Part shown: positions 12,464 to 52,880 of the stretch, in pieces
Layout: every line of letters begins with the position of its first letter
Position numbering within the stretch: position 1 is the stretch's first letter
Virus record (IMG/VR): IMGVR_UViG_3300025425_000027
Location: 1 to 53,353 of that record
Reading direction: 5' to 3' (one strand)
Length of the DNA stretch: 53,353 nt
DNA from: a virus
Taxonomy: Duplodnaviria > Caudoviricetes
Translations under genes and position numbers: made by a program
Notes under the pieces: generated by a model
What the model saw: the letters and a program-made list of their open reading frames with translations, nothing else
What the model was told of the DNA's origin: nothing
Database searches by the model: none

Positions 12464-13285
12464 TTAGGACAGCATTGCGTTATAAGTCTTCGGGCCTACG
12501 ATCCCATCAGCAACAAGATCTTTACTTTCCTGCCACGCCTGAACCGCCTTTTGCGTCATTATACCAAAAACTCCATCCGTTTCCAGTCCTAATGCGGACT
12601 GCACCTTTTCAACTTCTTTGCCAGTTGATCCAACCTTTAATAGGATAGGCGCACGGACAACAACGTAGCTGCCACCTAAGATGTCCAGAGAGCGTTTGTA
12701 GTGGTGCTTTCGATCAGCAAGGCCAATCGTTCCGCCATTAATTTTTTTGGTCGCCTTAACAACATCCTGAGCGTCTGCGTGGCGGTTTAAGTTGTTTTCA
12801 TCCCAAAACCAGCAAGCACTTTCCAACGCGCCGCGCTTGGTTCCAAGGTATTCGATTGTGTCATCTAGATCCATGCCAACGCTCTTCGCAAAGGCAGATA
12901 CGTTGTCGAAGCCCGTCAATTGGATGACGCCTTTTCCCGAAAATTTCCAGCCATCCCCGCTCGACGGCGGTCCATTACCCATGCGGCTCGCATATACGAT
13001 ATTAGCAATCTTTTCGGGCTGACGATGGTATTCTTGAGCATCGCGCCCAGCACGTTCAAAATATTTAGGGAAGATAGCGTTAAGGCCCTTGGCAGAATAA
13101 TTAAGGTTTTCTTTTAGAACTTTGAAGTTCAGGCTTTCATGGCCACACTGAGCAACGAACATTGCAATTCTATCTTCGGTGTTCACACCATATTTTGGCA
13201 AAAGTTCTTGCATGGGTTCGACCCAGCTTTCCCAATCATCGTTGCCATGAAGCAAGTGCTTTACCTGTGAAGAAGTTAAGATCAT
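12464..13285 (-). CDS. Endolysin: GH19 domain plus C-terminal peptidoglycan-binding domain
   Basis: AQCGHES, ENLNYS, GDGWKFSGKGVIQLTG, TKKINGG; DGVFG..T..AV...Q...L..DGIVG. Confidence 0.93.
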   Translation of the reverse strand: MILTSSQVKHLLHGNDDWESWVEPMQELLPKYGVNTEDRIAMFVAQCGHESLNFKVLKENLNYSAKGLNAIFPKYFERAGRDAQEYHRQPEKIANIVYASRMGNGPPSSGDGWKFSGKGVIQLTGFDNVSAFAKSVGMDLDDTIEYLGTKRGALESACWFWDENNLNRHADAQDVVKATKKINGGTIGLADRKHHYKRSLDILGGSYVVVRAPILLKVGSTGKEVEKVQSALGLETDGVFGIMTQKAVQAWQESKDLVADGIVGPKTYNAMLS

Positions 13286-13737
13286 TTGTTTGCTCCCATA
13301 AATTTACTTACACTTCTCTGCCCGAACCAAAACGCTATGATTGCGCTGAACAAAGCCTGTGTTTCATCATCAAACATCAGCGGAACTGCGTCTTGCCAAT
13401 CGTTGCCAGCTTCCATTGCCTTTAATAGTATGACCGCTTTGACGGATAGGAATAAAGCAAAAAAAGCATAAGTAATAACAGGCCGTACAGATGCGGATAA
13501 TCCTGCGGCAAAGCCGCTACGAGGGTTAGCAAATTCATATAAAGCCTTCGTTTCTGCAATCTCAGCTTGCTTATCTAGTTTCTGGATGTCGTGCGTAACG
13601 CCAAGGGCCGCGAGTTCGCCCTGTAGTTTAAGTTCTTCAATTCGGTTTTTGTGATCCTGTTTCTTTTGAAAGAACCCCAGCACTTGGGGAAGGAACGATG
13701 TCCCAAAGCCCAACGCGCTACCTAATAAAGCTATCAT
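13282..13737 (-). CDS. Holin (GTA-holin 3TM-like)
   Basis: SVRPVITY...IIAFWFGQR; adjacent to the endolysin. Confidence 0.75.
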   Translation of the reverse strand: MIALLGSALGFGTSFLPQVLGFFQKKQDHKNRIEELKLQGELAALGVTHDIQKLDKQAEIAETKALYEFANPRSGFAAGLSASVRPVITYAFFALFLSVKAVILLKAMEAGNDWQDAVPLMFDDETQALFSAIIAFWFGQRSVSKFMGANK

Positions 13738-14048
13738 TCTTTCTTACCTCCCAGCTTAGAAAATCCAAAGAATGCCCCAACCAGCGCAGATACGGATACA
13801 AAATAAACCCCAGCGATACTAGCAAGAGAGTTCATCGCTTGATCCAGCCCCATAATAGCGCACAGGACTATAGCGAAGGGATAAAGCAGCATTCCAGACA
13901 GAGCAAACCAAGTCATCTTACGCTGGGCATCTCGCTGGGCATCTTCGTCATCAAGCACACGCTTCCGGTTTTCTAGGGCCAGAGCGTCCCACTCAGACTT
14001 ATCTATGTTGCCAGATCCGTCACTGTCGGCCTTTTCAAACTCAGTCAT
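13734..14048 (-). CDS. EF-hand plus 2-TM membrane protein (holin/antiholin-like)
   Basis: Canonical EF-hand loop DSDGSGNIDKSE; two hydrophobic helices; basic C-terminus. Confidence 0.7.
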   Translation of the reverse strand: MTEFEKADSDGSGNIDKSEWDALALENRKRVLDDEDAQRDAQRKMTWFALSGMLLYPFAIVLCAIMGLDQAMNSLASIAGVYFVSVSALVGAFFGFSKLGGKKE

Positions 14049-14057
14049 ATCAATCTC

Positions 14058-14570
14058 CTAATCAGCCAAAGGATTGTCTAATGCACGTTGCAATTTACCC
14101 ATAAGCCTGTCCTCAAGTTCCTTCATATCCGCGTCTTGACTGCTTCTAACACGTTCTCTCTGATTTTCAAAACGAACTTCAGCAGCGTCAATCATAGCGC
14201 GGACCTTGTCTTCCATCTCCCGAACCATGTCTTCTATACGGTCAGTCTGCTGTTCGATCCGCAAAATGTCATCCGTCAGGCCATTCTTGATGGCACGGGA
14301 ATACTCGACGCCCTCCTCAACCTTCTCAGCAATGCCAAGCATTCGAGCGTCCATAACTTCCATTTGCTGTTGATACTCCCCAATATCAAGCCCTGCTACC
14401 TCTTCAATCTTTTGATACAGTACAAAGCCACCGTACAAACCACCAACTACCGTAGATATGAAAGCAAAGATTGCAAAGATAGATGCGAAGGTAAACTTAA
14501 AACCACCTGCCTTGATCTCGCGGTCTGCGAGGCCATCAATGTTATCTGCAACTTTAGTCAGATCAGTCAT
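14058..14570 (-). CDS. Membrane-anchored coiled-coil protein
   Basis: One N-terminal TM (FTFASIFAIFAFISTVVGG), long heptad region ending ALDNPLAD. Confidence 0.75.
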   Translation of the reverse strand: MTDLTKVADNIDGLADREIKAGGFKFTFASIFAIFAFISTVVGGLYGGFVLYQKIEEVAGLDIGEYQQQMEVMDARMLGIAEKVEEGVEYSRAIKNGLTDDILRIEQQTDRIEDMVREMEDKVRAMIDAAEVRFENQRERVRSSQDADMKELEDRLMGKLQRALDNPLAD

Positions 14571-15004
14571 CAGTTTTCAAACTCCATTTCGCCTTCATCG
14601 TTTTCACCTGATTCCTGCAACTTTTTAAGCTGTTGCAGTTCAGCGCGAAGCATTTGAATTTCAAGGCGTCTGTGGGTTAGCTCCATTTGAAACAAGTCAT
14701 CACAATTCACACGGCTTTTAGGCTTATCTAAAGGAATAACGACACGCGCATAAAGGCCAATGTCCTTACCCTGCCCAACGCCGTTTCCAATGTCGGTTAT
14801 AACACCCGTAACACCCCACTCAAGTGTCGTGCCGCCGCCGACAGCATTGCTACAATCCAGATTACCAGCGCGAAAACGATCAGATTGATAGTTCATCGGT
14901 GCGCTTGGGAGTTGGAGCGCAAGCGAACTGCTTTCCGATCTCGCCTCAAGAACGCTAATGAAAATTATAAACGATACCATCCAGAAAACTACATACCATT
15001 TCAT
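14570..15004 (-). CDS. Exported protein with Cys-flanked amphipathic beta-hairpin and coiled coil
   Basis: Signal peptide; C...TLEWGVTGV...IGLYARVVIPL...C, then a heptad helix. Confidence 0.7.
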   Translation of the reverse strand: MKWYVVFWMVSFIIFISVLEARSESSSLALQLPSAPMNYQSDRFRAGNLDCSNAVGGGTTLEWGVTGVITDIGNGVGQGKDIGLYARVVIPLDKPKSRVNCDDLFQMELTHRRLEIQMLRAELQQLKKLQESGENDEGEMEFEN

Positions 15005-15387
15005 GGCCTAGCCCCATCAACTCGCGAACATATCCTAGAGGAGATTACCGTCTTGACGCCAGCCTTCTTTAGCATCTTGGATGTTGTGCATAGATACACC
15101 GCCCGAACTAAATCAGCTTTTCTTATGTAGACTGAAAAGTCTTGCCGCTCCTCATGTTTTACCTTTAAAACTCTGTACTTTGTGGCAAAGGGTACGTTGA
15201 TCCAGTCAGCATCGAAGAGGGCGATCTTATAATACTTAACGTCAGATCGGTAATTAAACAAAGACATCTCTGCCTTCATTACCCCCTCAACGTAGGAAGG
15301 TTTTAGAGTTGGATAGGCAGGCGTCATTTCATGTGCCGCCAAAGCAGAAGACCAGACAAGAAACAACAGTGATGCTTTAGTTAGCAA
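15001..15387 (-). CDS. Exported Ig-like protein (PapD-chaperone-like)
   Basis: Signal peptide ending ALAA; beta-rich (MSLFN...YYKIALFD); 2 Cys; TTG start. Confidence 0.6.
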   Translation of the reverse strand: MLTKASLLFLVWSSALAAHEMTPAYPTLKPSYVEGVMKAEMSLFNYRSDVKYYKIALFDADWINVPFATKYRVLKVKHEERQDFSVYIRKADLVRAVYLCTTSKMLKKAGVKTVISSRICSRVDGARP

Positions 15388-15865
15388 TGCACTCTGCCTG
15401 TACGATGGCGGTATAACTTCCGCCGGGGAACGCTTTATCTACACCATAAATAGCAGTTGAGCTTGTATCGAACCAAGTGCTGCCAGCTACAGTTAAACTG
15501 AAATCAGTAGTAGCACCGTAAACAACTTTGTTGGTGTCATATGCTGACATGGTGGCATCTGTAGTTTGTCCTACAGCAGTAGAGCCAGTCCAATTAACAG
15601 TGTCCGTGAGCGTTGGCGAAGATGAAAAAGCTGTAGGCGATGTAATCCGCGCAGTATAGTAATTTGCAACGGCTACATCATACCTAACTATAGGGACAAC
15701 TCCACCATCAGCCGGAAGCGTAGACAGCTTTGTAGCCGTAGGGTTGCCATAAACACCCGGCGTGTCCGTTTGGATGATGCACTTTGCCTCAATGTTGCCA
15801 ACAATTTCTACTTCGGCAAGCGCAGGGAAAGCGCACATTGAAAGAATTAAAACAGGATACTTCAT
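15377..15865 (-). CDS. Exported fimbrial-subunit-like protein
   Basis: Signal peptide ending ALA; EVEIVGNIEAKCII N-terminus; Thr/Ser-rich beta strands; GGSYTAIVQAEC C-terminus. Confidence 0.65.
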   Translation of the reverse strand: MKYPVLILSMCAFPALAEVEIVGNIEAKCIIQTDTPGVYGNPTATKLSTLPADGGVVPIVRYDVAVANYYTARITSPTAFSSSPTLTDTVNWTGSTAVGQTTDATMSAYDTNKVVYGATTDFSLTVAGSTWFDTSSTAIYGVDKAFPGGSYTAIVQAECIAN

Positions 15866-15873
15866 ATTGGACC

Positions 15874-16746
15874 TCATTCATCATATTGCATCTGCACCAT
15901 TTGTTCATGCAGCAATTGTTGCGCTAAATTATTTCTCAGTGCCTTACTATTATCGGGTAAATTAGCATCCGTCAAAGTTTTGACATCTCCGTATCTTCCA
16001 CCGTTTATCGTTGAATTATAGTACATAGCCAAATCAGTTTGGAGATTAATTGCGTTTATTATCTCAGCTTGGCCCTGCACCCGCAGCATTGTTAGCGCAT
16101 TATTGGACGCAGTAAGTCCCATTTCCAGCCTTGTCTCTTTTTCTTCATCGTCATCGTCAACGATACGGTTTCCATCCTGATCATATTTAAAGTTAGTGTC
16201 GCTGTCTAAAGCTGCAAGGATAAGTTCGTCCTCAAGAGTGTTATAAACCTCAACATCAACTACGGGAGGCGCAGGCTTAACGTAACCTACACAGCCGGAG
16301 TTTAATTGCGGATCGTAACACGCATCAATCCGGTAGCTGTAAACCACAACCGCATCCTGAACGCTTCCCGTACCGTCAACAGATATAGAACCGTTACCCC
16401 AATTCACACCGGGGGTATTGCCTAACGCAAATGATTTGGTGATCCGGTTGCCGGGAACGCCGCTCCAATCGTCAGTTTCTCTAAAAATATACCCACTGCC
16501 CAGAGCATTTAGATTGCTTACATGGACCTTCATGGCGTCTTCGGTATTCTTGACTGTTGTGTAGCGATATATAAGGCCATTTATGTCTAAGCCCGTCACA
16601 GAGGGCAGTACAGACCCCATTGACCAGTTTAGGCCACTGTATGCAGCGTTGCCCGTTGCACCGTATGTAAACGGCTCAGAGTAAGAGGAGGAGGCCAAGA
16701 GCGCCAAGTACAGCGCCAACACCAACCTTGGTGTCCTTATCAACAT
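15874..16746 (-). CDS. Exported protein (beta-sandwich, acidic linker, helical tail)
   Basis: Signal peptide; CYDPQLNSGC; DDDDEEKE linker. Confidence 0.7.
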   Translation of the reverse strand: MLIRTPRLVLALYLALLASSSYSEPFTYGATGNAAYSGLNWSMGSVLPSVTGLDINGLIYRYTTVKNTEDAMKVHVSNLNALGSGYIFRETDDWSGVPGNRITKSFALGNTPGVNWGNGSISVDGTGSVQDAVVVYSYRIDACYDPQLNSGCVGYVKPAPPVVDVEVYNTLEDELILAALDSDTNFKYDQDGNRIVDDDDEEKETRLEMGLTASNNALTMLRVQGQAEIINAINLQTDLAMYYNSTINGGRYGDVKTLTDANLPDNSKALRNNLAQQLLHEQMVQMQYDE

Positions 16747-17233
16747 TATTAAACATACCTTTTATAGCACCCTTGTCCATCTTCTGAGCGGGTTCGATAC
16801 TGTCCTCCGCCTCCCATGCCATCGTAGCAGCATCGCCTATTAGACCTCTAATTGGGCAGGGCGTCCCGGCATTCTTCATGGCAAGTTTTACGTTTGCATC
16901 TTGGCACATTACCGATACAGCCGCCACTTTCATGCCCATATCATACATAGTCTTAGCGTTCTTTAAGCGTAAGCAGTTCTCTTCGGTGTAAACCTTGCCC
17001 ACTGATATGCCAAGAATTTGGGTTTGTACTGCACCAGATACGCCAATCGTGCAAAGATCGCCCGTCCCAGTGCTGATTTGTGGGGATATTGCAGAGGGTG
17101 GAGGGCTGCGAACCGTGGTGTCCATTGTCCCAGACGAAGTTACATTACTGTCGCTATATACCGTGTCCGAAACTTGGGCATTGGCTAGGCCACCCGTCAA
17201 GATAAAAACCAATATGGCGATTAGGCGAGCCAT
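16676..17233 (-). CDS. Exported 4-Cys protein with beta-hairpin and C-terminal TM
   Basis: Signal peptide ending ANA; DLCTIGVSGAVQTQILGISVG...ENC...MCQD...TPCP; hydrophobic C-terminus. Confidence 0.75.
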   Translation of the reverse strand: MARLIAILVFILTGGLANAQVSDTVYSDSNVTSSGTMDTTVRSPPPSAISPQISTGTGDLCTIGVSGAVQTQILGISVGKVYTEENCLRLKNAKTMYDMGMKVAAVSVMCQDANVKLAMKNAGTPCPIRGLIGDAATMAWEAEDSIEPAQKMDKGAIKGMFNNVDKDTKVGVGAVLGALGLLLLL

Positions 17234-17424
17234 TACATCCTCATTAGGACCGTGACTAAAAGACCAATAATGGACGCAGCCGCAGCAATCATAATGGATT
17301 CCAACCTCTTGATTCTAATGTACAAATCTTTGAATTGAATTTTAACCTCAGTTTTAATTGCGATGACTTCCTTTTCCAATCCATCAATCCGTGCATGAGC
17401 TGAGCTTACTGTTCTTTTGTCCAT
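17233..17424 (-). CDS. Small coiled-coil plus C-terminal TM protein (XhlA/holin-like)
   Basis: RIKRLESIMIAAAASIIGLLV. Confidence 0.65.
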   Translation of the reverse strand: MDKRTVSSAHARIDGLEKEVIAIKTEVKIQFKDLYIRIKRLESIMIAAAASIIGLLVTVLMRM

Positions 17425-27649: not shown

Positions 27650-27841
27650 TTATACATTCCCCGCTGATAATTCACGGGCTAAGATCTTGAGCGTATCGGC
27701 AAAGCCCTTGTCCAGCTCTTTAGCCGCCATAGCAAACTTGCGTGGCGATACGTCATCGCTATCCAAGCCACGCCGCTCTAGGAAGCTCTTCGCTGCCCTG
27801 ATTTCTGCCTGCGCTACGCGCTTAACTGCCGCTCTAGCCAT
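27650..27841 (-). CDS. Hypothetical protein
   Basis: GGAGG RBS; coupled to the upstream gene. Confidence 0.7.
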   Translation of the reverse strand: MARAAVKRVAQAEIRAAKSFLERRGLDSDDVSPRKFAMAAKELDKGFADTLKILARELSAGNV

Positions 27842-30800
27842 CTTGGCCTCCTACTTGATCTAACGCACCATAACCTGTCCCAGCGCCAACTGCCAATGGC
27901 ACGGCGTATGTTGGAATGCCTTTTTTCATTATAGCATCAACAAGCCTTTTAGTTAAAGGCAGAGCCGTAACGGCCTCTAATGCTGATGATGTCTCTATCA
28001 CTTTTCCTACTAGCTGTGCGTCTGGATCATAAGATTTTGCTATATCAAGTAGGTTGCTTGGAGCGATTTCACCGTAGAAAGCCCTGTGACCCTCAAGATC
28101 GCCATAGGTATATTTCTTGACCATCTCTGGGTTTGGCAAAGTGATGTAATCGGCCCCGCTTTCAATAGCATCCATCAATTGACGCTTTAAGGTCATGTTA
28201 ACCCATGTATCTGTGCTTTCAATGAAAGGTGCGCCAGTCTTGGTTTTTGAAAAGTTTTGATTGTCGAACCTTTTGAGACCTGACGATAATGAATCTATTT
28301 TAGGGACGTTTTGAGCATATGAATTAGCCCAATCAACATAATCAGAGGGGATATTGTCAGTTGTGAATATGTATTGAGCGAAATCATCTAATTCTGAACG
28401 ATAGTTGCTCATATTTCCCCTGACGTGGCCAAAGAACGTGCGATTATCTAGTAGTTGGTCTGGTCGCCAAACCTGACCATCTCTAACATTATTAATGTCA
28501 ACGCCACTTTGTTTGTTTTTAAAGTCAGCTATAATTTTTTTGTAAATTGCAAGTTTCTCTGGATATTGCTCTCTGCGGAATACAGTACCCAACCCGACAT
28601 CATCACCAAATACAATCCTATTCAGATCATCTTCAGCACCCTTTATTTCGTCACTAAGTTGCTCAGATAAATAACGGTATTCACCCATTTGGATTTCTTG
28701 TTCACGAGTTCTTGGAGTATATTTTGTTACTTCCCCAGTTTGCTTGTCTTTATCTCTAAGGGCTTGAGCGGCATCAGATTGGATTTCTCCAACGTGATAC
28801 GCTGTCCCGCCACCATCGACAGGAAACTCAGCCGTTCTGACGTGAGCAACTAAGTTTGTATCTCTTCCAGTTTCCTCAAAGTGAGTTTCTTTGAAGTAAT
28901 CATCAGGCAATCTGCCTGTCGGATCTCTGAACTGATATGTGGTTTCTGCTGTATTCGTACCGCCTGATGGGAAGTATTTTGTGTATTCTAGTTCGCTTGT
29001 ATCAGCAGATGCTCCTGCATCACCAAAGATCATTCTACCATAAAGCTCTGGATCGTATTGCTCCATTTCATCCAACTCTTCCTGTAATGACTCACGGGCC
29101 ATATCATTAAAGTCAGGAGCGTCAGCCTCTATGGCTGCGTCTTTATCAGAATAAATAGACCATTGCTTGTTCATTGGATTATAGTCTCCAATCCAACCAT
29201 CAGGATATTTTTCAGCCAATGCTGCGCCATCTTCAACGCCATCCATAAACTCTGCGATTTGATCTAAACCCTCATAATTTCCAGCAGCTACATAGTCAGA
29301 TATGCTTTCAAAATCAGTGCCATATTCCCAATCTTGTTCAAAGTTTTCTCGTAACAGATCAAACCTGTCTACAAGATTGTCATCTATGTAGTTTTCCACA
29401 GCCATACGGGTGTCGCCACCCTCTGATCTCAAAACGCCTTGCGCTATTTTTCTTTCTGCTTCCACTAAGTCTTTATTCTCATTTAGGTATTGTATCAGTT
29501 CAGTCTTAGTAACGTCTGTGCGACCTTCAAAAGCCTCATCAGCTCCAGACCATTCCAGCTCTTTAGCTTTAGCGCCGTTCTTTAGCATCCACTTCTTCAG
29601 AGATTTGTACGCACCCTTTTCTTGTGGAAGATTCTCCGCTGCCTTCATTGATGGGCTAAAGGTAGGAATATAACTATTGTTACCAAAAGCGCCTGTCAGC
29701 GCACCCATGTCTGTCTCTTGGCCCACGCTCACATCATTAAGGACACCGTACTGCCTCTCAGCTTCAAGCGCCTCTTGGATCGTGGGCTTGGCTTGGTTAA
29801 AGACAGTCGGAGTGGCGTGTTCCTTTAAGTAATCAAGATCAATCCTACGGCGCATGGATTGATCTATAGGCTCTCCAGTAGCAACTTGGATTATAAGATC
29901 CGCTGCGCGTTCTTCTGCTTCTGTTTTGGGTATCGGCAAATTGTATCTTGCGTACAAATCACGCAATTGATCAGCATATTGAGCATCTGAGATTTGGTAT
30001 ACTGGACCTTTTTCTTTTCTTATGCCAGCTAAATACTCTTCAACCACGCTTGGGGGCTGCCCTGACTCCCTAAGAGTTTGCACACCCAATCGAACAGACG
30101 GATCTTGATACTCTGGGCGACTGTCGAGTGCTATATCAATGCGCTCATTTAACATGCGATCATACGCAGCGTTGGCTTCATCTATCTCGCTGAAGTCAGC
30201 ATCCGTAAGCTCCAAATCATTTAAGAGTTGGTCATCTTCTCGCGTAAAGGCCGCTGCACGGTTTCGAGCCACTAACTCTTCCAACCCGCCGTTAAACCAA
30301 TCAGTGTTTATTGGCTGCACAACATCATCTGGAGCCAAATCTTCATCCAAGATTAGATCAGCTACAGCGTCATCCATTTCCGCGTCTGTAAGTTCGTCTG
30401 GCTGTTGGGCGCGAAGACGCGCACCCAGCTCTTCCATTGATAGACGCGGTGCTTCTATCTCTTCAAAGTTGGCTATGGGTATGAAGTCATCGTCAACGGC
30501 GTCCAGTTGCTGTTGTTGTGCTGCTAAAGCGCCAAATTGTGGCGTATCTGCTGGCATGTCGGGGGTAATTGCCGCTGGCGGTTCAGGCAATCTTTTTGCC
30601 GCTGTGGCAACTTTGGACGCCTTTCCTAGCCTGCTAAATATGCCTAGATATGGAGCTGCATATACCTCTGCAAATTCAACACCAGCCAATAGATCTCTGG
30701 AAAGCCTGTCTTCTTGGTTCTCGGTCTGAAACGGCATTTGCTCTGCCACAAAGCCAGCCCCAGCTCCCAATCCAGAAACAATGGTGCTGAACAACCCAAG

Positions 30801-31142
30801 GCCAGCGTCAGCAATGCCACCATAAACATATTGAGCGCCCTTTGGCCCACCGGGGTAAAAAGCCATCTCTGGCATCATAGTTGCCACGCCTTGCCCCGTA
30901 GCCGCATTTTTAAACATCTGACCAGCGTTGCTTAAATATTCGCCTGCCACATCAAAGCCGTAGTTGCTTAGAGGCTTTTCTTTTTGAGTTGCTGTCGGTG
31001 CTACATATCCAACGGGGTCTGCGCGAGGAACCATAGGGTTTTCAGCGTAATAATTAGTTAAATAATCAGCATATGCCTGCGATGGGATGTTCGGGCTTCC
31101 ATCTTCATTGAATGCACCGTCTGCAAATACTCTTTCAGCCAT
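27834..31142 (-). CDS. Large polyvalent-type internal virion protein
   Basis: ~1100 aa, start reassigned to MAERVF; KELEWSG and HF...AHVR...GEIQSD...APF...LKR domains. Confidence 0.6.
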   Translation of the reverse strand: MAERVFADGAFNEDGSPNIPSQAYADYLTNYYAENPMVPRADPVGYVAPTATQKEKPLSNYGFDVAGEYLSNAGQMFKNAATGQGVATMMPEMAFYPGGPKGAQYVYGGIADAGLGLFSTIVSGLGAGAGFVAEQMPFQTENQEDRLSRDLLAGVEFAEVYAAPYLGIFSRLGKASKVATAAKRLPEPPAAITPDMPADTPQFGALAAQQQQLDAVDDDFIPIANFEEIEAPRLSMEELGARLRAQQPDELTDAEMDDAVADLILDEDLAPDDVVQPINTDWFNGGLEELVARNRAAAFTREDDQLLNDLELTDADFSEIDEANAAYDRMLNERIDIALDSRPEYQDPSVRLGVQTLRESGQPPSVVEEYLAGIRKEKGPVYQISDAQYADQLRDLYARYNLPIPKTEAEERAADLIIQVATGEPIDQSMRRRIDLDYLKEHATPTVFNQAKPTIQEALEAERQYGVLNDVSVGQETDMGALTGAFGNNSYIPTFSPSMKAAENLPQEKGAYKSLKKWMLKNGAKAKELEWSGADEAFEGRTDVTKTELIQYLNENKDLVEAERKIAQGVLRSEGGDTRMAVENYIDDNLVDRFDLLRENFEQDWEYGTDFESISDYVAAGNYEGLDQIAEFMDGVEDGAALAEKYPDGWIGDYNPMNKQWSIYSDKDAAIEADAPDFNDMARESLQEELDEMEQYDPELYGRMIFGDAGASADTSELEYTKYFPSGGTNTAETTYQFRDPTGRLPDDYFKETHFEETGRDTNLVAHVRTAEFPVDGGGTAYHVGEIQSDAAQALRDKDKQTGEVTKYTPRTREQEIQMGEYRYLSEQLSDEIKGAEDDLNRIVFGDDVGLGTVFRREQYPEKLAIYKKIIADFKNKQSGVDINNVRDGQVWRPDQLLDNRTFFGHVRGNMSNYRSELDDFAQYIFTTDNIPSDYVDWANSYAQNVPKIDSLSSGLKRFDNQNFSKTKTGAPFIESTDTWVNMTLKRQLMDAIESGADYITLPNPEMVKKYTYGDLEGHRAFYGEIAPSNLLDIAKSYDPDAQLVGKVIETSSALEAVTALPLTKRLVDAIMKKGIPTYAVPLAVGAGTGYGALDQVGGQDG

Positions 31143-31143
31143 A

Positions 31144-31401
31144 TCACCACGCCTTACATGACCAGTATCTGGCCTTTGTTTTTGGACCGGGTTCATCACA
31201 GTTGTGACGCGCCCTGAAGTTAGATCTGCGGCCCTTCTGCGTTTTCTTGATGGTCATTTTAGGATCGCCAAAGGTAACGCGCTTAATCTTATCACCGTCC
31301 GTCACATATACCACAGACTTCTTCTTGCCGTAAGAAGTTTCGCCCTTGGATATGCGGCGTGGGTTGTTCAGCTTGACGCTCTTACCTTTGTAGGTTGCCA
31401 T
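31144..31401 (-). CDS. Small basic phage protein
   Basis: FGDPKM...RRSNFRARHNC...ARYWSCKAW. Confidence 0.75.
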   Translation of the reverse strand: MATYKGKSVKLNNPRRISKGETSYGKKKSVVYVTDGDKIKRVTFGDPKMTIKKTQKGRRSNFRARHNCDEPGPKTKARYWSCKAW

Positions 31402-44263: not shown

Positions 44264-46558
44264 TCAATTAATTGGTGGGGCGAAGTATGCGAAGCGTGGA
44301 CGCCCTCTGGCCCCTTGGTTTTGGTCGCGGCACTCAATGCCCCGGTCTGTCTGTAGTGCGTCCAGAACGTCTGCACGTTTGCGTCTGTCCATATTAGCGA
44401 AGGCTGAGACGCTGCGCGACAGGTCACGCTCAGTTAGTCCACCTAGTCCAGCCTTTTCGATACGGGCATAGACTGCCTTACAGGCTGCATCGAATGGGCC
44501 TTCGGCCATGTTCGAGCGGAACATTTCGATAGTTTGCTTGGCGTAGTAGTTAACGTAATCGATGCTCCACTGCATTGCGTCTGAACCGATATCATCTTGT
44601 CCCATTGATCGCGCCACGATTAGGGACAGGCGCATGGCGATCTCTCTAGATCGATTGTACATGGCCTCTAGTCCAGTGCCAGTTTCTTTCTTGATTGCGG
44701 CTACTAGACGCTCTTCGTAGTCGCGCAGGAGCTTCTTTGCCTCTGGGGTGAAGACAACTTCAATTGGGTGTGGCGGCATATCGTTGATGTTGCCTGCATC
44801 TAGGTCACCTTCGTGGGCGTTTGCGTGTTCCTTTGCCCAAGCTGACAGCCTATCAGAGATAGATGAGCGGCGCTTTTCTTGGGACATCTGGACGCCGATA
44901 TCTGATTTGACGATCAGGAAACGGTTTAGAAGACCAGAAGCCACGTCACCACCACCGATTGCCTGCATGAACTCAGAGGGCGTTGACATGCCGACTAGGG
45001 TTAATGACGGGCGCTTAACTACGGTTTCGAGCTTTGCTGCCTCAGAAGACTTCATTGTGTTGGTTGCGTAGCCTTGCTGCCTTAGAACGCCGTCTTGCCT
45101 GCCAAAACATTCCATTATGGAGGTGAGGGCGTCTGCCTTGTGCTGCATTCCTTTTGCTGCGGCGGCTTTAAGCTGACGGCCCAGCTCATCAACTACAGAG
45201 ACGTGGGTGGGCTTTTTTGTGAGGGTGGACATGACGCCTGCACCACTGGTGTATCCAGATGGGCCGATCAGCTCTTCTAAACCAGACTCTTCAAGCAGCT
45301 CTTCTAGGACAGTCTTTGTGTGTTCCTTACCAGATCCAGTCTCGCCAATGTTTAGGAAGTATAGGCTGGTGAAGTTTCGCTGATCTGTAACCCAGCGGCG
45401 CCCCATTGCCACTGACCCGAAAGCTAGGGCGCACTGAACAGCGAACTGTGGCTGGGGCTTGATGGCGGTGACAGTGTAGTAATTGACCACATCTTGCAGA
45501 ATGCCGGGTACTGACAACAAGTCTTCGGGTACTGTATTTAGTGGTAGGTCCGCCTGTTTGGGCTTTGACATAATGTTGGCGGCTACCTTTGCGCCGTGTT
45601 CGATGGCCTCACGATCATATTCGTGGTTTGGATCTTGGGTGACGTTCATCATCTGGGCCGCGTCTTTAACTGCCTTGCTGACATTACCCATGTGTTCGTA
45701 CTGACACCAAAGCTCGAAGGCATCGAAGGTGTGTGCCGAATCAAACGGATCTGATGCGTGGTGGCTATAGGCACGGCCATCATCGAACAGCTTTACGCCT
45801 GCCAGCTTTGAGGTGGAGTTTGGCGATAGGTATCTGCCACGGGATGTTGGCTTGTATCCGTACTGAACCAGCAGGGTGTGCATGTCGTGAGTTTCATTGA
45901 ACTGGTCTATGACTGACGTGCCTTCACCCTTTGGGCGGGGCTTGCGGGTTGGCTGGAACTCTGCCTTCTTTTTCCACGGGCATATGTCTTGTAGCTGTGG
46001 TCGAAATTTATCCCAGTCACGCCATAGGGTCAGGAGCTGTGGCGGTAGATCTGGGAGGCCATCAAAGATCGACCTGCCTGCCCACTCATAGGGACGGCCA
46101 GTATCTGGGTGGATCGATGGGGGCAGAACGTCCTGCACTGAACCAGCTCGAAGCTCGAAGACCACTTCGGTCTTGCGTGGATCGTCTTGGACTGGCCACG
46201 ATATCTTGTGGGTGATTAGATCGGGTGGTGCTTTAAAGATCAGCTTGCCACGATTTTCACGACCAATGATTTGGGGTGCGGACTGCATAAGCTCAGAGAA
46301 GTCGATGCCCAGCTCTTCAAAGATTATCTTTGTGTGTTCGACGTTATCTATATCAACAGCACAAGTGCCGCTGGCTCCATGTAGTAGACCTACATTGTGA
46401 TTCGGATTCTGCTCGTAATACAGCCGCGCTGCATCAGGATCAGACAATGCCTTCTCTGGTTGCTGCCAGCCAAATCTCGTTGGGCCTTTAGAGCCTGCGG
46501 GGATCGTGACTAGATACCAGCCAAGTTTAGAGCAATAGTCTTCAACTGGGAATTTCAT
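44264..46558 (-). CDS. Bifunctional primase-polymerase fused to a P-loop helicase (DUF3987-like)
   Basis: NVGL...AVDID...VLPPSIHP..G..Y.W; Walker A GETGSGKE; VVDE; GLLNRFL. Confidence 0.88.
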   Translation of the reverse strand: MKFPVEDYCSKLGWYLVTIPAGSKGPTRFGWQQPEKALSDPDAARLYYEQNPNHNVGLLHGASGTCAVDIDNVEHTKIIFEELGIDFSELMQSAPQIIGRENRGKLIFKAPPDLITHKISWPVQDDPRKTEVVFELRAGSVQDVLPPSIHPDTGRPYEWAGRSIFDGLPDLPPQLLTLWRDWDKFRPQLQDICPWKKKAEFQPTRKPRPKGEGTSVIDQFNETHDMHTLLVQYGYKPTSRGRYLSPNSTSKLAGVKLFDDGRAYSHHASDPFDSAHTFDAFELWCQYEHMGNVSKAVKDAAQMMNVTQDPNHEYDREAIEHGAKVAANIMSKPKQADLPLNTVPEDLLSVPGILQDVVNYYTVTAIKPQPQFAVQCALAFGSVAMGRRWVTDQRNFTSLYFLNIGETGSGKEHTKTVLEELLEESGLEELIGPSGYTSGAGVMSTLTKKPTHVSVVDELGRQLKAAAAKGMQHKADALTSIMECFGRQDGVLRQQGYATNTMKSSEAAKLETVVKRPSLTLVGMSTPSEFMQAIGGGDVASGLLNRFLIVKSDIGVQMSQEKRRSSISDRLSAWAKEHANAHEGDLDAGNINDMPPHPIEVVFTPEAKKLLRDYEERLVAAIKKETGTGLEAMYNRSREIAMRLSLIVARSMGQDDIGSDAMQWSIDYVNYYAKQTIEMFRSNMAEGPFDAACKAVYARIEKAGLGGLTERDLSRSVSAFANMDRRKRADVLDALQTDRGIECRDQNQGARGRPRFAYFAPPIN

Positions 46559-50702: not shown

Positions 50703-51216
50703 AGAAAAGATCTTGAGCATCAGATTGACGCGATCAGAAATATCAGAAGCAAAGCAGGCGGCTGCGCTACGCTGGCAACTGGCACGGGCTAGTGGAGTTG
50801 CTAACCAGCGCAGAGACAATAGGTCAGACGGCGACATCGACCTTTTAGGCGTCAAGGCTGAGATAGCTGTGGCGAAGGCATTGCAGCTTCCATACAGGGC
50901 GTCCGCACTTGGGATCGATAGTGGGGCAGACATCTGGGCAGATGACGTTGGCATTGATGTGAAGTCTACATTTTATCAGACAGGCAAGCTGCTGTTTAAG
51001 TCTCTGGAAGCATTCGTTGCTGAGTATGCCATATTGGTTACGGCATCGGGCGAAGAGGATGTGATGCGCGTTATTGGCGGCATGGGCCGGGATAGATTTA
51101 AGACTGACGCAGTTCAAGTGGATCTTGGCCGGGGTCCATGTTGGGTTGCAGCCCAAGATACATTGACGCCGATAGAAGGTGTCTGGCTTGGATTTACGCA
51201 ATGGAGGATGCGCTGA
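50689..51216 (+). CDS. Restriction-endonuclease-fold protein
   Basis: GVKAEIA...DSGAD...IDVKST. Confidence 0.6.
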   Translation: MAQGEEKILSIRLTRSEISEAKQAAALRWQLARASGVANQRRDNRSDGDIDLLGVKAEIAVAKALQLPYRASALGIDSGADIWADDVGIDVKSTFYQTGKLLFKSLEAFVAEYAILVTASGEEDVMRVIGGMGRDRFKTDAVQVDLGRGPCWVAAQDTLTPIEGVWLGFTQWRMR

Positions 51217-52880
51217 TGACCTTTGAATTAAGAGACTACCAGAAAGATGCGATTGACGGCCTGTACAACTATTGGGCTGGCAAGGCTGGGGACAACCCAC
51301 TGATCGTTGCGCCGACTGGGTCTGGCAAGACGGCGATCATCGCGCAGTTGATTAAGGATGCTATGGGCTTTCCCGGCACACGGGTGCTGGTTGTGACGCA
51401 TGTGAAGGAGCTGTTGGAGCAAGGCGCAGATGGGTTGCTGAAGCTGTACCCAGAGGCTGATTTTGGACTCTACAGCGCAGGTTTGAAGCAAAAGGTGCTA
51501 GGCAGACCAATCACGTTTGCAGGCATCCAGTCGATCTGGGAGAGGGCGTATGACATTGTGCCTGCCCCTGACTTGGTTCTGATCGATGAGGCGCACTTGC
51601 TACCCAAAAATACTGAGACAAGATACAATCGGTTTATCGCTGATCTGAAGGTGTGCAACCCAGACGTGAAGGTGGTGGGGCTTACGGCCACGCCATACAG
51701 GCTGGACAGCGGGTATCTGCATGAGGGAAAAGGCGCGATCTTTGACGGGATTGCCCACGACATCCCAGTGGCCATGCTAATGGAGCAAGGCTACCTGTCG
51801 CCTGTGATCAGCAAGGGCGGCGTAAAGCAGATAAATCTGGAGGGTGTTGGCAAGCGGGGCGGTGAGTTCATTGAGAGCCAGCTTGCAACTGCGGCGTCTG
51901 ACCCAGAGCTGGTGAGGTCTACTGTCGAGGAGATCGTGCGGCTTGGATCGGATCGGAAAAGCTGGCTGGTGTTCAGCAGCGGGGTCAACCACGCTAATAT
52001 GTTGGCTGATGAATTTGAGGCCCACGATATTGCAGTTGGCGTGGTGACAGGCACAGACAGCGACAAGGTGCGCGAGAAGACCATTGCAGACTTCAAGAGC
52101 GGTGAGCTGCGCTGCCTGATTAACGTGAACGTGTTGACCACGGGGTTCGATCACCCACCAGTTGATCTAGTCGCTTTGGTTAGGGCTACGGCATCGACGG
52201 GCCTTTACGTTCAGATGGTGGGCCGGGGAACGCGGATTGCTGACGGTAAGGAAAACTGCCTGATTCTGGATTACGGCCAGAATGTCGAGCGGCACGGGTT
52301 TATCGATCAGGTAAAGCCAAAGGATAAGATGTCGAGCGGAGACGGCGAAGCGCCGACCAAGCAGTGCGAGAGCTGCCAGACAATGGTTCACGCAGCCTGT
52401 CAGATCTGCCCTGAGTGCGGGTTCCAGTTTCCTGCGCCGACACTCAACCACAGCGCAAACTCCTATCGTGGGGCCATGCTATCGTCTCAGGTAGTGGCTG
52501 AGTGGTATGACGTGGATAGCGTGGCGTATGCGCGGCATAAGAAGGAGGGCAAGCCAGACAGCGTGAAGGTGACGTATTACGCTGGGCTGATGGCTGTGAG
52601 CGAGTGGCTATGCCCAGATCACGGCGGGTATGCTGAGAGCCGCTACAAAGCTCGCAAGGCGTTGCTGACCTCTGATGCCAACAGCACGGATGATGCACTC
52701 AACGAATGCCAGTTTTGGGTTAAACCCAGCAAGATTAAGGTTAAGCCATCCAACCATGACCCGCGCTATCAAGAGATCGTGCAGTTTGATTATACTCAAG
52801 TGGAGAGAAAACATGAGACGAAGACGCAAGGCTTCGGGGGTTACGCTAATCTCAACGACCTCGAAGACATACCCTTCTGA
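51216..52880 (+). CDS. SF2 helicase (RadD/YejH-like) with Zn finger
   Basis: LRDYQ, PTGSGKT, DEAH, TATP, TGFD, QMVGRG, CxxC..CxxC; start reassigned to MTFEL. Confidence 0.93.
   Translation: MTFELRDYQKDAIDGLYNYWAGKAGDNPLIVAPTGSGKTAIIAQLIKDAMGFPGTRVLVVTHVKELLEQGADGLLKLYPEADFGLYSAGLKQKVLGRPITFAGIQSIWERAYDIVPAPDLVLIDEAHLLPKNTETRYNRFIADLKVCNPDVKVVGLTATPYRLDSGYLHEGKGAIFDGIAHDIPVAMLMEQGYLSPVISKGGVKQINLEGVGKRGGEFIESQLATAASDPELVRSTVEEIVRLGSDRKSWLVFSSGVNHANMLADEFEAHDIAVGVVTGTDSDKVREKTIADFKSGELRCLINVNVLTTGFDHPPVDLVALVRATASTGLYVQMVGRGTRIADGKENCLILDYGQNVERHGFIDQVKPKDKMSSGDGEAPTKQCESCQTMVHAACQICPECGFQFPAPTLNHSANSYRGAMLSSQVVAEWYDVDSVAYARHKKEGKPDSVKVTYYAGLMAVSEWLCPDHGGYAESRYKARKALLTSDANSTDDALNECQFWVKPSKIKVKPSNHDPRYQEIVQFDYTQVERKHETKTQGFGGYANLNDLEDIPF

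Follow-up and report, generated by a model that had tools for sequence, protein, structure and literature searches.

Here we report a six-gene module in the complete virus record IMGVR_UViG_3300025425_000027 (53,353 bp; the whole stretch analysed, hereafter the window). The reading that we favour, at a probability of roughly 40%, is that its products form a lysis-linked, periplasm-spanning envelope complex that substitutes for spanins. The six minus-strand open reading frames (ORFs), which we name by length in amino acids (aa), abut or overlap head to tail from position 17233 down to 14058 in the order g185, g290, g166, g128, g144 and g170. Read in this way, the module would be an envelope-spanning lysis or assembly device made of unrelated parts. 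How phages without spanins open the outer membrane is largely obscure, including in the case of SAR11 phages, which are among the most abundant viruses on Earth; parts of a bioRxiv preprint (10.1101/515445) put the share of phages of Gram-negative hosts that have no recognisable spanin at ~15%. Existing phage–host pairs would allow a test, since cultured pelagiphages and roseophages also carry members of the g185 family.

Conservation and distribution of the module

The six genes are one genuine phage-specific module, co-inherited beyond chance. Related loci were drawn from three sources: an IMG/VR search with g166 (40 loci), a search that used the aligned g185 family (the top 80 of at least 591 loci), and a pattern-based search, of limited sensitivity, of one genome per species across 185,579 species (5 loci). 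Among the 122 related loci in total, duplicates retained, all six genes were found in window order on one strand in 92, the remaining 30 being cut by a contig end, and there were no exceptions. A sequence-only reading of the window, made before this analysis, had proposed the same six abutting or overlapping genes and had staked its interpretation on their co-occurrence in other genomes, and on both counts it is borne out. All of its ORFs are present on the minus strand at the positions it gave, with the start of g166 set here at 15877; its own start, 15865, is the second in-frame ATG.

Protein identities among the loci fall to ~30–60%, and the contigs that carry the cassette measure between a few kb and 197 kb. 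The six are the only genes common to all uncut loci, the flanks being variable, with terminase-like, nuclease and unknown genes beside the cassette in other loci. Close relatives of the stretch come from salt-lake, marine, seawater and lake metagenomes of several studies, while the five loci from the species scan all lie on short metagenome-bin contigs with mutually inconsistent taxonomy. The g185 family is large, with 7902 protein clusters at E <= 0.001 among 8000 candidates scored, and the g128 profile matched 1113 clusters; no Pfam domain was found among the best 120 matches of either profile. A tblastn search of g166 against 50,697 GenBank phage records gave no match, and keyword searches of open-access text found no published description of the six-gene module. 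An apparent g144–g170 fusion in two loci was rejected, as a stop codon separates the genes.

Export features of the cassette proteins

Five of the products (g185, g290, g166, g128 and g144) have a hydrophobic N-terminal segment and, after it, a small-residue site. In alignments of 21 sequences per family, hydropathy over 10 residues peaks at 1.8 or more in all 21 members for g166 and g128, in 20 of 21 for g290 and for g144, and in 19 of 21 for g185. The hydrophobicity of these segments is kept while their sequence drifts, and conservation begins just past the presumed cleavage site. The mature chains contain four Cys in g185 and two in each of the others, and all of these Cys are invariant across the alignments. 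From the hydrophobic N-termini, the small-residue sites and the conserved Cys we infer that the five products are exported and cleaved; the signal-like N-termini and conserved Cys pairs fit periplasmic folding. The alignments thereby agree with the sequence-only reading, which had seen five signal-bearing products with even numbers of Cys.

These features also bear on whether the cassette encodes virion or virion-assembly proteins, for example tail-fibre accessories, with hydrophobic N-termini that are not signal peptides. The cassette does lie inside the structural gene row, and beta-sandwich folds are common in tail fibres. A conserved signal-like pattern with drifting sequence, combined with invariant Cys pairs, is however typical of exported proteins, and a BFVD fold search of g166 returned no named structural relative. 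We consider a virion role very improbable.

None of the six proteins received a functional name from Pfam, NCBIfam or PHROGs, and profiles of g166, g128, g290 and g185 gave nothing usable against the sequences of solved structures. Comparison of g166, g144 and g290 by hhalign gave no paralogy, the alignments being confined to signal peptides. Over 65–80 nt (window 16676–16746, minus strand), one DNA segment read in two frames encodes both the hydrophobic C-terminal tail of g185 and the g290 signal peptide, an overlap retained in every locus whose two ORF boundaries were compared.

The g128–g166 pair

The strongest structural signal comes from two adjoining genes. By AlphaFold2 prediction, g128 is a single immunoglobulin (Ig)-like domain (predicted local distance difference test, pLDDT, 86) with a fold like domain 1 of PapD/FimC-type chaperones and MSP domains (Foldseek, VIA). 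In the Foldseek search, 27 of the 33 rows shown were chaperones of chaperone–usher systems (FaeE, FimC, PapD, Caf1M, SafB, DraB), aligned over their first domain with a best E of 1.6e-3 and a TMq of ~0.5; none reached E <= 0.001. Cys100 and Cys120 form an invariant pair. His19, at the predicted mature N-terminus, opens the motif H-E/Q-x-T-P-T/A-Y-P in 21 of 21 members and is nearly invariant in a set of 61. A copper ‘histidine brace’ at this position was rejected: there is no second invariant His, and the residue lies in the interface predicted below.

Its partner g166 is predicted as a beta-sandwich (pLDDT 81) with invariant Cys33 and Cys163 close to the first and last strands, and with a conserved N-terminal segment, x-V-x-I-x-G-x-V-x-x-K-C. 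The best Foldseek rows for g166 were the PapG pilin domain (3.5e-3), AggA, FimG, CfaB and Caf1, mixed with carbohydrate-binding modules.

Sequence signatures of the chaperone–usher pathway were sought in both families. PapD_N (PF00345) matched 0 of 21 g128 members and 1 of 61 in the larger set, the lone match (E 0.0096) scoring 16.3 bits against a cut-off of 23; across the window PF00345 found nothing at E <= 10, under conditions in which an E. coli control responds. The hhalign probability of g128 against E. coli FimC was 0.2–0.4%. Fimbrial Pfam families matched 0 of 21 g166 members at E <= 10, and hhalign of g166 against a FimA/FimI/FimF/FimG alignment gave a probability of 9.6% over 35 columns, placing the N-terminal segment on the first strand of FimA and not on its donor extension. 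Among 171 representatives of the g128 family (E <= 0.001), 170 are at most 181 aa long, so the family has no second chaperone domain. The exception is a 2258-aa protein, P0388, in which four stretches match the N-terminal part of the g128 profile (E 6.5e-7); it may be a repeat protein, since Pfam gave only spurious-looking matches.

We then predicted the complex of mature g166 and mature g128, each supplied as an alignment. The interface score (ipSAE) was 0.82 (0.79–0.83 between runs) against 0.01 for the best control, with at least 95% contact agreement between runs and partner pLDDT of at least 89. The pass mark is met by 58 of 80 solved complexes and by 2 of 110 mismatched pairs, a calibration that is approximate here, where our own alignments were supplied. 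The predicted interface joins g128 residues 19–25 and 107–122 to g166 residues 30–37 and 153–166. The lowest-error pairs (g166–g128: 161–117, 163–119, 165–121) indicate parallel pairing of the C-terminal strands; in addition, g128 residue 117 touches g166 residues 35 and 161, and g128 residues 19–20 touch g166 residue 34. Parallel pairing of the last strand of chaperone domain 1 with the last strand of the subunit is a hallmark of donor-strand complementation. Residues 22–29 of g166, with alternating hydrophobics and an invariant Gly, lie outside the predicted interface. The prediction supports binding and a chaperone–subunit-like geometry, short of proof.

The sequence-only reading had taken g128 for an Ig-fold periplasmic chaperone, g166 for a pilin and the cassette for a pilus-like apparatus. 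In each case part of the claim stands. The chaperone keeps its fold and its predicted binding to g166, without a PapD_N signature or a second domain; the pilin keeps a beta-sandwich with pilins among its Foldseek rows, without a fimbrial sequence signature; and the apparatus keeps its co-occurrence, export and predicted g128–g166 contact, without an usher. A rival explanation is an usher-less miniature pilus, a surface or envelope fibre of infected cells that would serve aggregation, superinfection exclusion or receptor masking and not lysis. g128 would chaperone g166 by donor-strand complementation, after which g166 would polymerise or receive a cap from the N-terminal strand of g144; g290 would serve as tip or adhesin. 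The pilins among the top Foldseek rows of g166, the resemblance of the predicted interface to donor-strand complementation, the position of g166 residues 22–29 outside it and weak matches of g144 to Saf pilins (below) all point this way. So does the location of the cassette, which follows possible tail-fibre genes, a common site of exclusion genes. Such genes are, however, usually early or prophage-expressed, whereas the phage appears lytic and the cassette lies in a late row; the cassette has no gene for an usher or other outer-membrane pore (its largest product has 290 aa), g128 lacks the second chaperone domain, and the PapD_N and fimbrial signatures were not found, with low hhalign probabilities. 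We regard such a pilus as unlikely, though it stays a live rival because the chaperone–subunit likeness is the strongest structural signal. If the module did block superinfection or mask receptors, it would be a widespread factor in marine phage competition.

Outer and connector proteins

The remaining four proteins supply the candidate anchors and connectors of the favoured lysis-linked complex. In g185, a signal-like N-terminus is combined with a Thr/Ser-rich linker that carries an SPPPSA motif and with a highly conserved 4-Cys domain that contains a Gly/Ala-rich hydrophobic stretch; a hydrophobic tail forms the C-terminal end of the protein. Its alignment contains 53 invariant columns, and no conserved Cys was found in its signal region in the 21 sequences. 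The protein matches phrog_20531 (function unknown; 5.7e-16), has homologues in pelagiphages, roseophages and Ralstonia phage RSP15, and in the ESM Atlas gave unnamed viral clusters only.

In g290, an acidic linker joins a beta-rich N-terminal domain, which contains a single Cys pair, to a helical C-terminal part that ends in the conserved motif H-x-x-M/L-V-x-x-Q-Y. The protein has no family or solved-structure match and nothing in the ESM Atlas.

In g144, a conserved strand-like motif at the N-terminus (S-S-S-L-N-L-x-L-P) is followed by an amphipathic hairpin with a variable tip, bracketed by Cys51 and Cys101, and by a charged C-terminal helix ending in F-E-N. It matches phrog_37374 (function unknown; 4.4e-6). 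Three of the four weak matches of its profile to solved structures are Saf pilins (E 0.067–2.2) over a 38-residue hairpin, and Saf-Nte_pilin was matched by 1 of 21 members (E 0.0096). The hairpin weakly resembles one within the SafA pilin fold, not a pore.

g170, which has no Cys, was taken by the sequence-only reading for a TM-anchored coiled coil and a possible inner-membrane tether, and its predicted architecture agrees. A transmembrane (TM)-like segment occupies about residues 21–52 (TM-like windows start at 21–34), and a heptad segment at residues 92–132 was matched by 0 of 200 shuffles under a crude heptad score. The predicted periplasmic coiled coil varies in length and is followed by a C-terminal D/N-N-P-L motif in which N-P-L is invariant.

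The lysis neighbourhood

Coordinates of the cassette, of the neighbouring lysis-type genes and of the other window features discussed below are given in Table 1.

Table 1. Features of the 53,353-bp window considered in this study.
Feature	Position	Strand	Length	Description
g185	16676-17233	minus	185 aa	cassette
g290	15874-16746	minus	290 aa	cassette; overlap with g185 of 71 nt
g166	15377-15877	minus	166 aa	cassette
g128	15001-15387	minus	128 aa	cassette; TTG start
g144	14570-15004	minus	144 aa	cassette
g170	14058-14570	minus	170 aa	cassette
g63	17233..17424	minus	63 aa	N-terminal heptad segment, C-terminal hydrophobic anchor; weakly XhlA-like
g104	13734..14048	minus	104 aa	N-terminal EF-hand-like loop, two TM-like segments, basic C-terminus
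g151	13282..13737	minus		candidate holin; phrog_6637 3.6e-22
g273	12464..13285	minus		endolysin-like; C-terminal peptidoglycan-binding-type domain
Lipobox ORF	30644-30850	minus	68 aa	hydrophobic stretch then L-A-L-G-C; in another frame within a 1121-aa gene at 27834-31199
2OG-Fe(II) oxygenase	300-1127	plus
Prim-Pol/DUF3987 primase-type protein	44264-46558	minus
SF2 helicase	51138-52880	plus

Directly upstream of the cassette, g63 matches Pfam XhlA at E 0.017, below the cut-off, with TM-like windows at 40–45; its heptad segment (residues 1–35) was matched by 2 of 200 shuffles. A g63 homologue directly upstream of the cassette was detectable in only 7 of 112 loci, and proteins of g63 architecture precede the g185 homologue in podovirus MW202481 and in roseophage CRP-810. 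g63 is probably the first gene of the lysis-linked cluster.

Downstream, g104 matches Pfam EF-hand_5 at 4.7e-5, just below the cut-off, and its topology is holin- or antiholin-like, with a possible Ca2+ sensor. In 46 of 92 loci a g104-type gene is found no more than 3 kb from the cassette, in 30 of them directly after g170. g151 matches Pfam GTA_holin_3TM below the cut-off (E 0.0089), and its homologue stands directly 5′ of the lysozyme gene in MW202481. For g273, NCBIfam matches cover residues 214–271, and the DNA matches Vibrio phage genes annotated as endolysin; in 21 of 92 loci a gene of this type stands no farther than 4.5 kb from the cassette. In all, at least one lysis-type neighbour (g104-, g151- or g273-type) was found in 50 of the 92 loci, in a search that covered relatives of the window's own lysis genes only, with 59 of the 92 extending at least 2.5 kb downstream.

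From the unbroken row of same-strand genes we infer late expression of the cassette, together with the lysis genes. A scan for promoter- and terminator-like sites gave chance-level results. In a marine metatranscriptome library, six short contigs, each covering 38–257 nt of window 12464–17424, fall on the endolysin-like gene, on g170, on the g144/g128 junction and on g185. Two of the six are at >=99% identity. They are no proof of transcription, because DNA carry-over is possible in such libraries.

The same neighbourhood raises the possibility that the cassette senses or regulates lysis timing from the periplasm, in the manner of the T4 antiholin RI. Its exported proteins would delay or trigger lysis, either by binding the holin or endolysin on the periplasmic side or by sensing the state of the envelope. 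The cassette stands directly 5′ of the two-TM and holin-like genes, and g104, with its EF-hand-like loop, is a frequent neighbour. There is precedent in part of PMC8385771, which describes an exported antiholin with a cleavable signal peptide, and in the marine phage curli genes treated in part of PMC9004378. Six strictly co-inherited, structural-looking proteins nevertheless exceed any known antiholin system, some loci carry the cassette with no holin neighbour detected, and no similarity to RI or to other antiholin families was found in Pfam, NCBIfam or PHROGs. We judge this role improbable; together with the virion role, it is less likely than either the spanin-replacing complex or the miniature pilus.

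An all-frame pattern scan for lipobox ORFs found none at 12.4–17.5 kb and four candidates elsewhere in the window; the scan is crude, and unusual lipoboxes could escape it. The sequence-only reading had likewise seen no lipoprotein spanin. A 68-aa ORF with a lipoprotein-type start (Table 1), far from the lysis genes, is probably a chance product.

Reduced sets in cultured phages

The outer genes of the cassette, of g185 and g170 type, recur without the middle genes in cultured phages. HTVC115P has a g185-like gp54; a 466-aa gp53 whose C-terminal half weakly resembles g290 (E 0.01 among 458 ORFs); three small genes; and a g170-like gp49 (E 4e-37). HTVC033P, a pelagiphage, carries a lysozyme gene (gp50), a TM protein (gp49), two small genes and a g185-like gp46, followed by gp45, a 534-aa protein with a signal-like N-terminus and an acidic linker, and gp44, with a TM segment, a coiled coil and a C-terminal N-P-L. 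Roseophage CRP-810 has a g185-like gp53, then gp52, then a g170-like gp51 (L049 4671-5093), which is annotated ‘lysozyme’, yet shows no lysozyme features, has a TM segment and coiled coil, and matches the g170 profile at E 1.6e-9. In podovirus MW202481 a small coiled-coil/TM gene comes first, followed by an unannotated g185-like ORF, the gene for a Pro-rich exported protein of 368 aa and an unannotated g170-like ORF; one further gene separates these from a g151-like gene, which is followed by a lysozyme. The two unannotated ORFs (L050 3348-3851, 4688-5095) match g185 (7.6e-47) and g170 (1.8e-10).

The reduced set consists of a g185-like protein, a long exported protein whose linker is acidic or Pro-rich, and a g170-like or TM plus coiled-coil protein. 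It lies a few genes from a lysozyme in HTVC033P and MW202481. HTVC115P and CRP-810 have the g185- and g170-like genes, with no genuine lysozyme annotated in the stretches examined.

A proposed lysis-linked envelope complex

In the complex that we favour, g170, and possibly g185, would be inner-membrane anchors, and g144 and g290 would act as connectors through their conserved terminal motifs, with the D/N-N-P-L of g170, the F-E-N of g144 and the H-x-x-M/L-V-x-x-Q-Y of g290 as candidate docking points. The g128–g166 pair would form a strand-paired core or a chaperoned subunit, and the assembled parts would span the periplasm from the inner membrane outward. After holin and endolysin action, the complex could breach or fuse the outer membrane, replacing an Rz/Rz1-type spanin. 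The step from an exported complex to outer-membrane disruption is our own extrapolation.

Several results weigh against this interpretation. No cassette component matched a spanin, holin or other lysis family in Pfam, NCBIfam or PHROGs, and none was recognised as contacting the outer membrane. Known spanins need one or two genes, not six. The placement of the cassette elsewhere beside terminase-like or unrelated genes is as expected of a mobile accessory module, and in 42 of 92 loci a lysis-type neighbour went undetected, in a search for window-type lysis genes among loci many of which end early. The g170 profile finds HTVC033P gp44 at no better than E 0.39, and for that reason the link of gp44 to g170 is drawn from architecture and the C-terminal N-P-L motif. 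A chaperone–subunit-like pair suggests fibre assembly, which has no known lysis role. Lastly, the g166–g128 score may stem from a learned likeness to solved chaperone–pilin complexes; such likeness can yield a pass of this kind, which is why we treat the prediction as support and not as proof.

A more specific form of the idea is that abundant marine phages use usher-less donor-strand assembly as a new class of lysis machinery. The one-domain PapD-like g128 would prime the beta-sandwich g166 in the periplasm and pass it to strand donors (g144, g290 or further g166), and the resulting strut, anchored in the inner membrane by g170 and g185, would act as infection ends, breaching the outer membrane or fusing it. 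We hold this version to be quite doubtful. Were it true, it would be the first chaperone–subunit system to act within the periplasm and not via an usher. Strand donation by the Ig-fold pair, if real, would mean that the chaperone–subunit principle exists outside chaperone–usher pili in a minimal one-domain form, with a bearing on the evolution of such systems, and would offer a small model for strand-exchange assembly.

Comparison with known systems

As in chaperone–usher systems, a protein folded like the Ig-like domain 1 of a chaperone (g128) has a beta-sandwich partner in the adjoining gene (g166). Their predicted contact runs through the first and last strands of both proteins, and both are predicted to be exported and disulfide-bearing. 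The cassette differs in having no sequence signature of the pathway and a one-domain, not two-domain, chaperone-like protein. No usher-sized gene is present in the cassette and no seventh gene is common to the 92 loci, although no search was aimed at usher profiles. The module is also phage-borne, with only five short metagenome-bin contigs in the 185,579-species scan, itself of limited sensitivity.

Among spanins, the lambda i-spanin Rz is described in sections of Kongari et al. 2018 (PMC6139136) as class II, N-in, with a periplasmic coiled coil. g170 has an Rz-like topology and lies in a lysis cluster, a likeness of architecture without sequence relation. Like the unimolecular spanin T1 gp11, g185 joins a signal to a membrane anchor at the opposite end of the chain, here a hydrophobic C-terminal tail, but no conserved Cys of the lipoprotein type was found in its signal region. 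By analogy with what PMC6139136 describes in part for spanins, the conserved C-terminal motifs of the cassette proteins might mediate partner contact. Unlike spanins, the cassette comprises six proteins instead of one or two and no lipoprotein or lipobox.

A second parallel is found in marine phages. According to portions of PMC9004378, pelagimyophages and the OM43 phage Melnitz carry incomplete, exported curli CsgGF modules, for which the authors propose a role in lysis control. The parallel lies in marine phages with an incomplete set of bacterial fibre-secretion genes, the products of which go to the envelope. CsgG and CsgF, as treated there, are recognisable homologues, whereas the cassette proteins match no family and resemble the chaperone–usher pathway. 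In the PBSX XhlA/XhlB/XlyA system, finally, as in the window, a small coiled-coil, C-terminally anchored protein (here g63) precedes holin-like and lysin genes; the XhlA match of g63 is below the cut-off, the PBSX host is Gram-positive, and PBSX has no counterpart of the six exported proteins.

Other features of the window

The genes upstream of the cassette are Gly-rich and fibre-like and are assigned ‘unknown function’ in PHROGs; an annotated upstream tail fibre was seen only in the roseophage relative. On the 3′ side of the lysis genes lie a ‘virion structural protein’ (phrog_3287, 2.3e-63) and ejection-type proteins. Tests of 10 ORFs revealed no integrase. Elsewhere the window encodes a 2OG-Fe(II) oxygenase, a Prim-Pol/DUF3987 primase-type protein and an SF2 helicase (Table 1).

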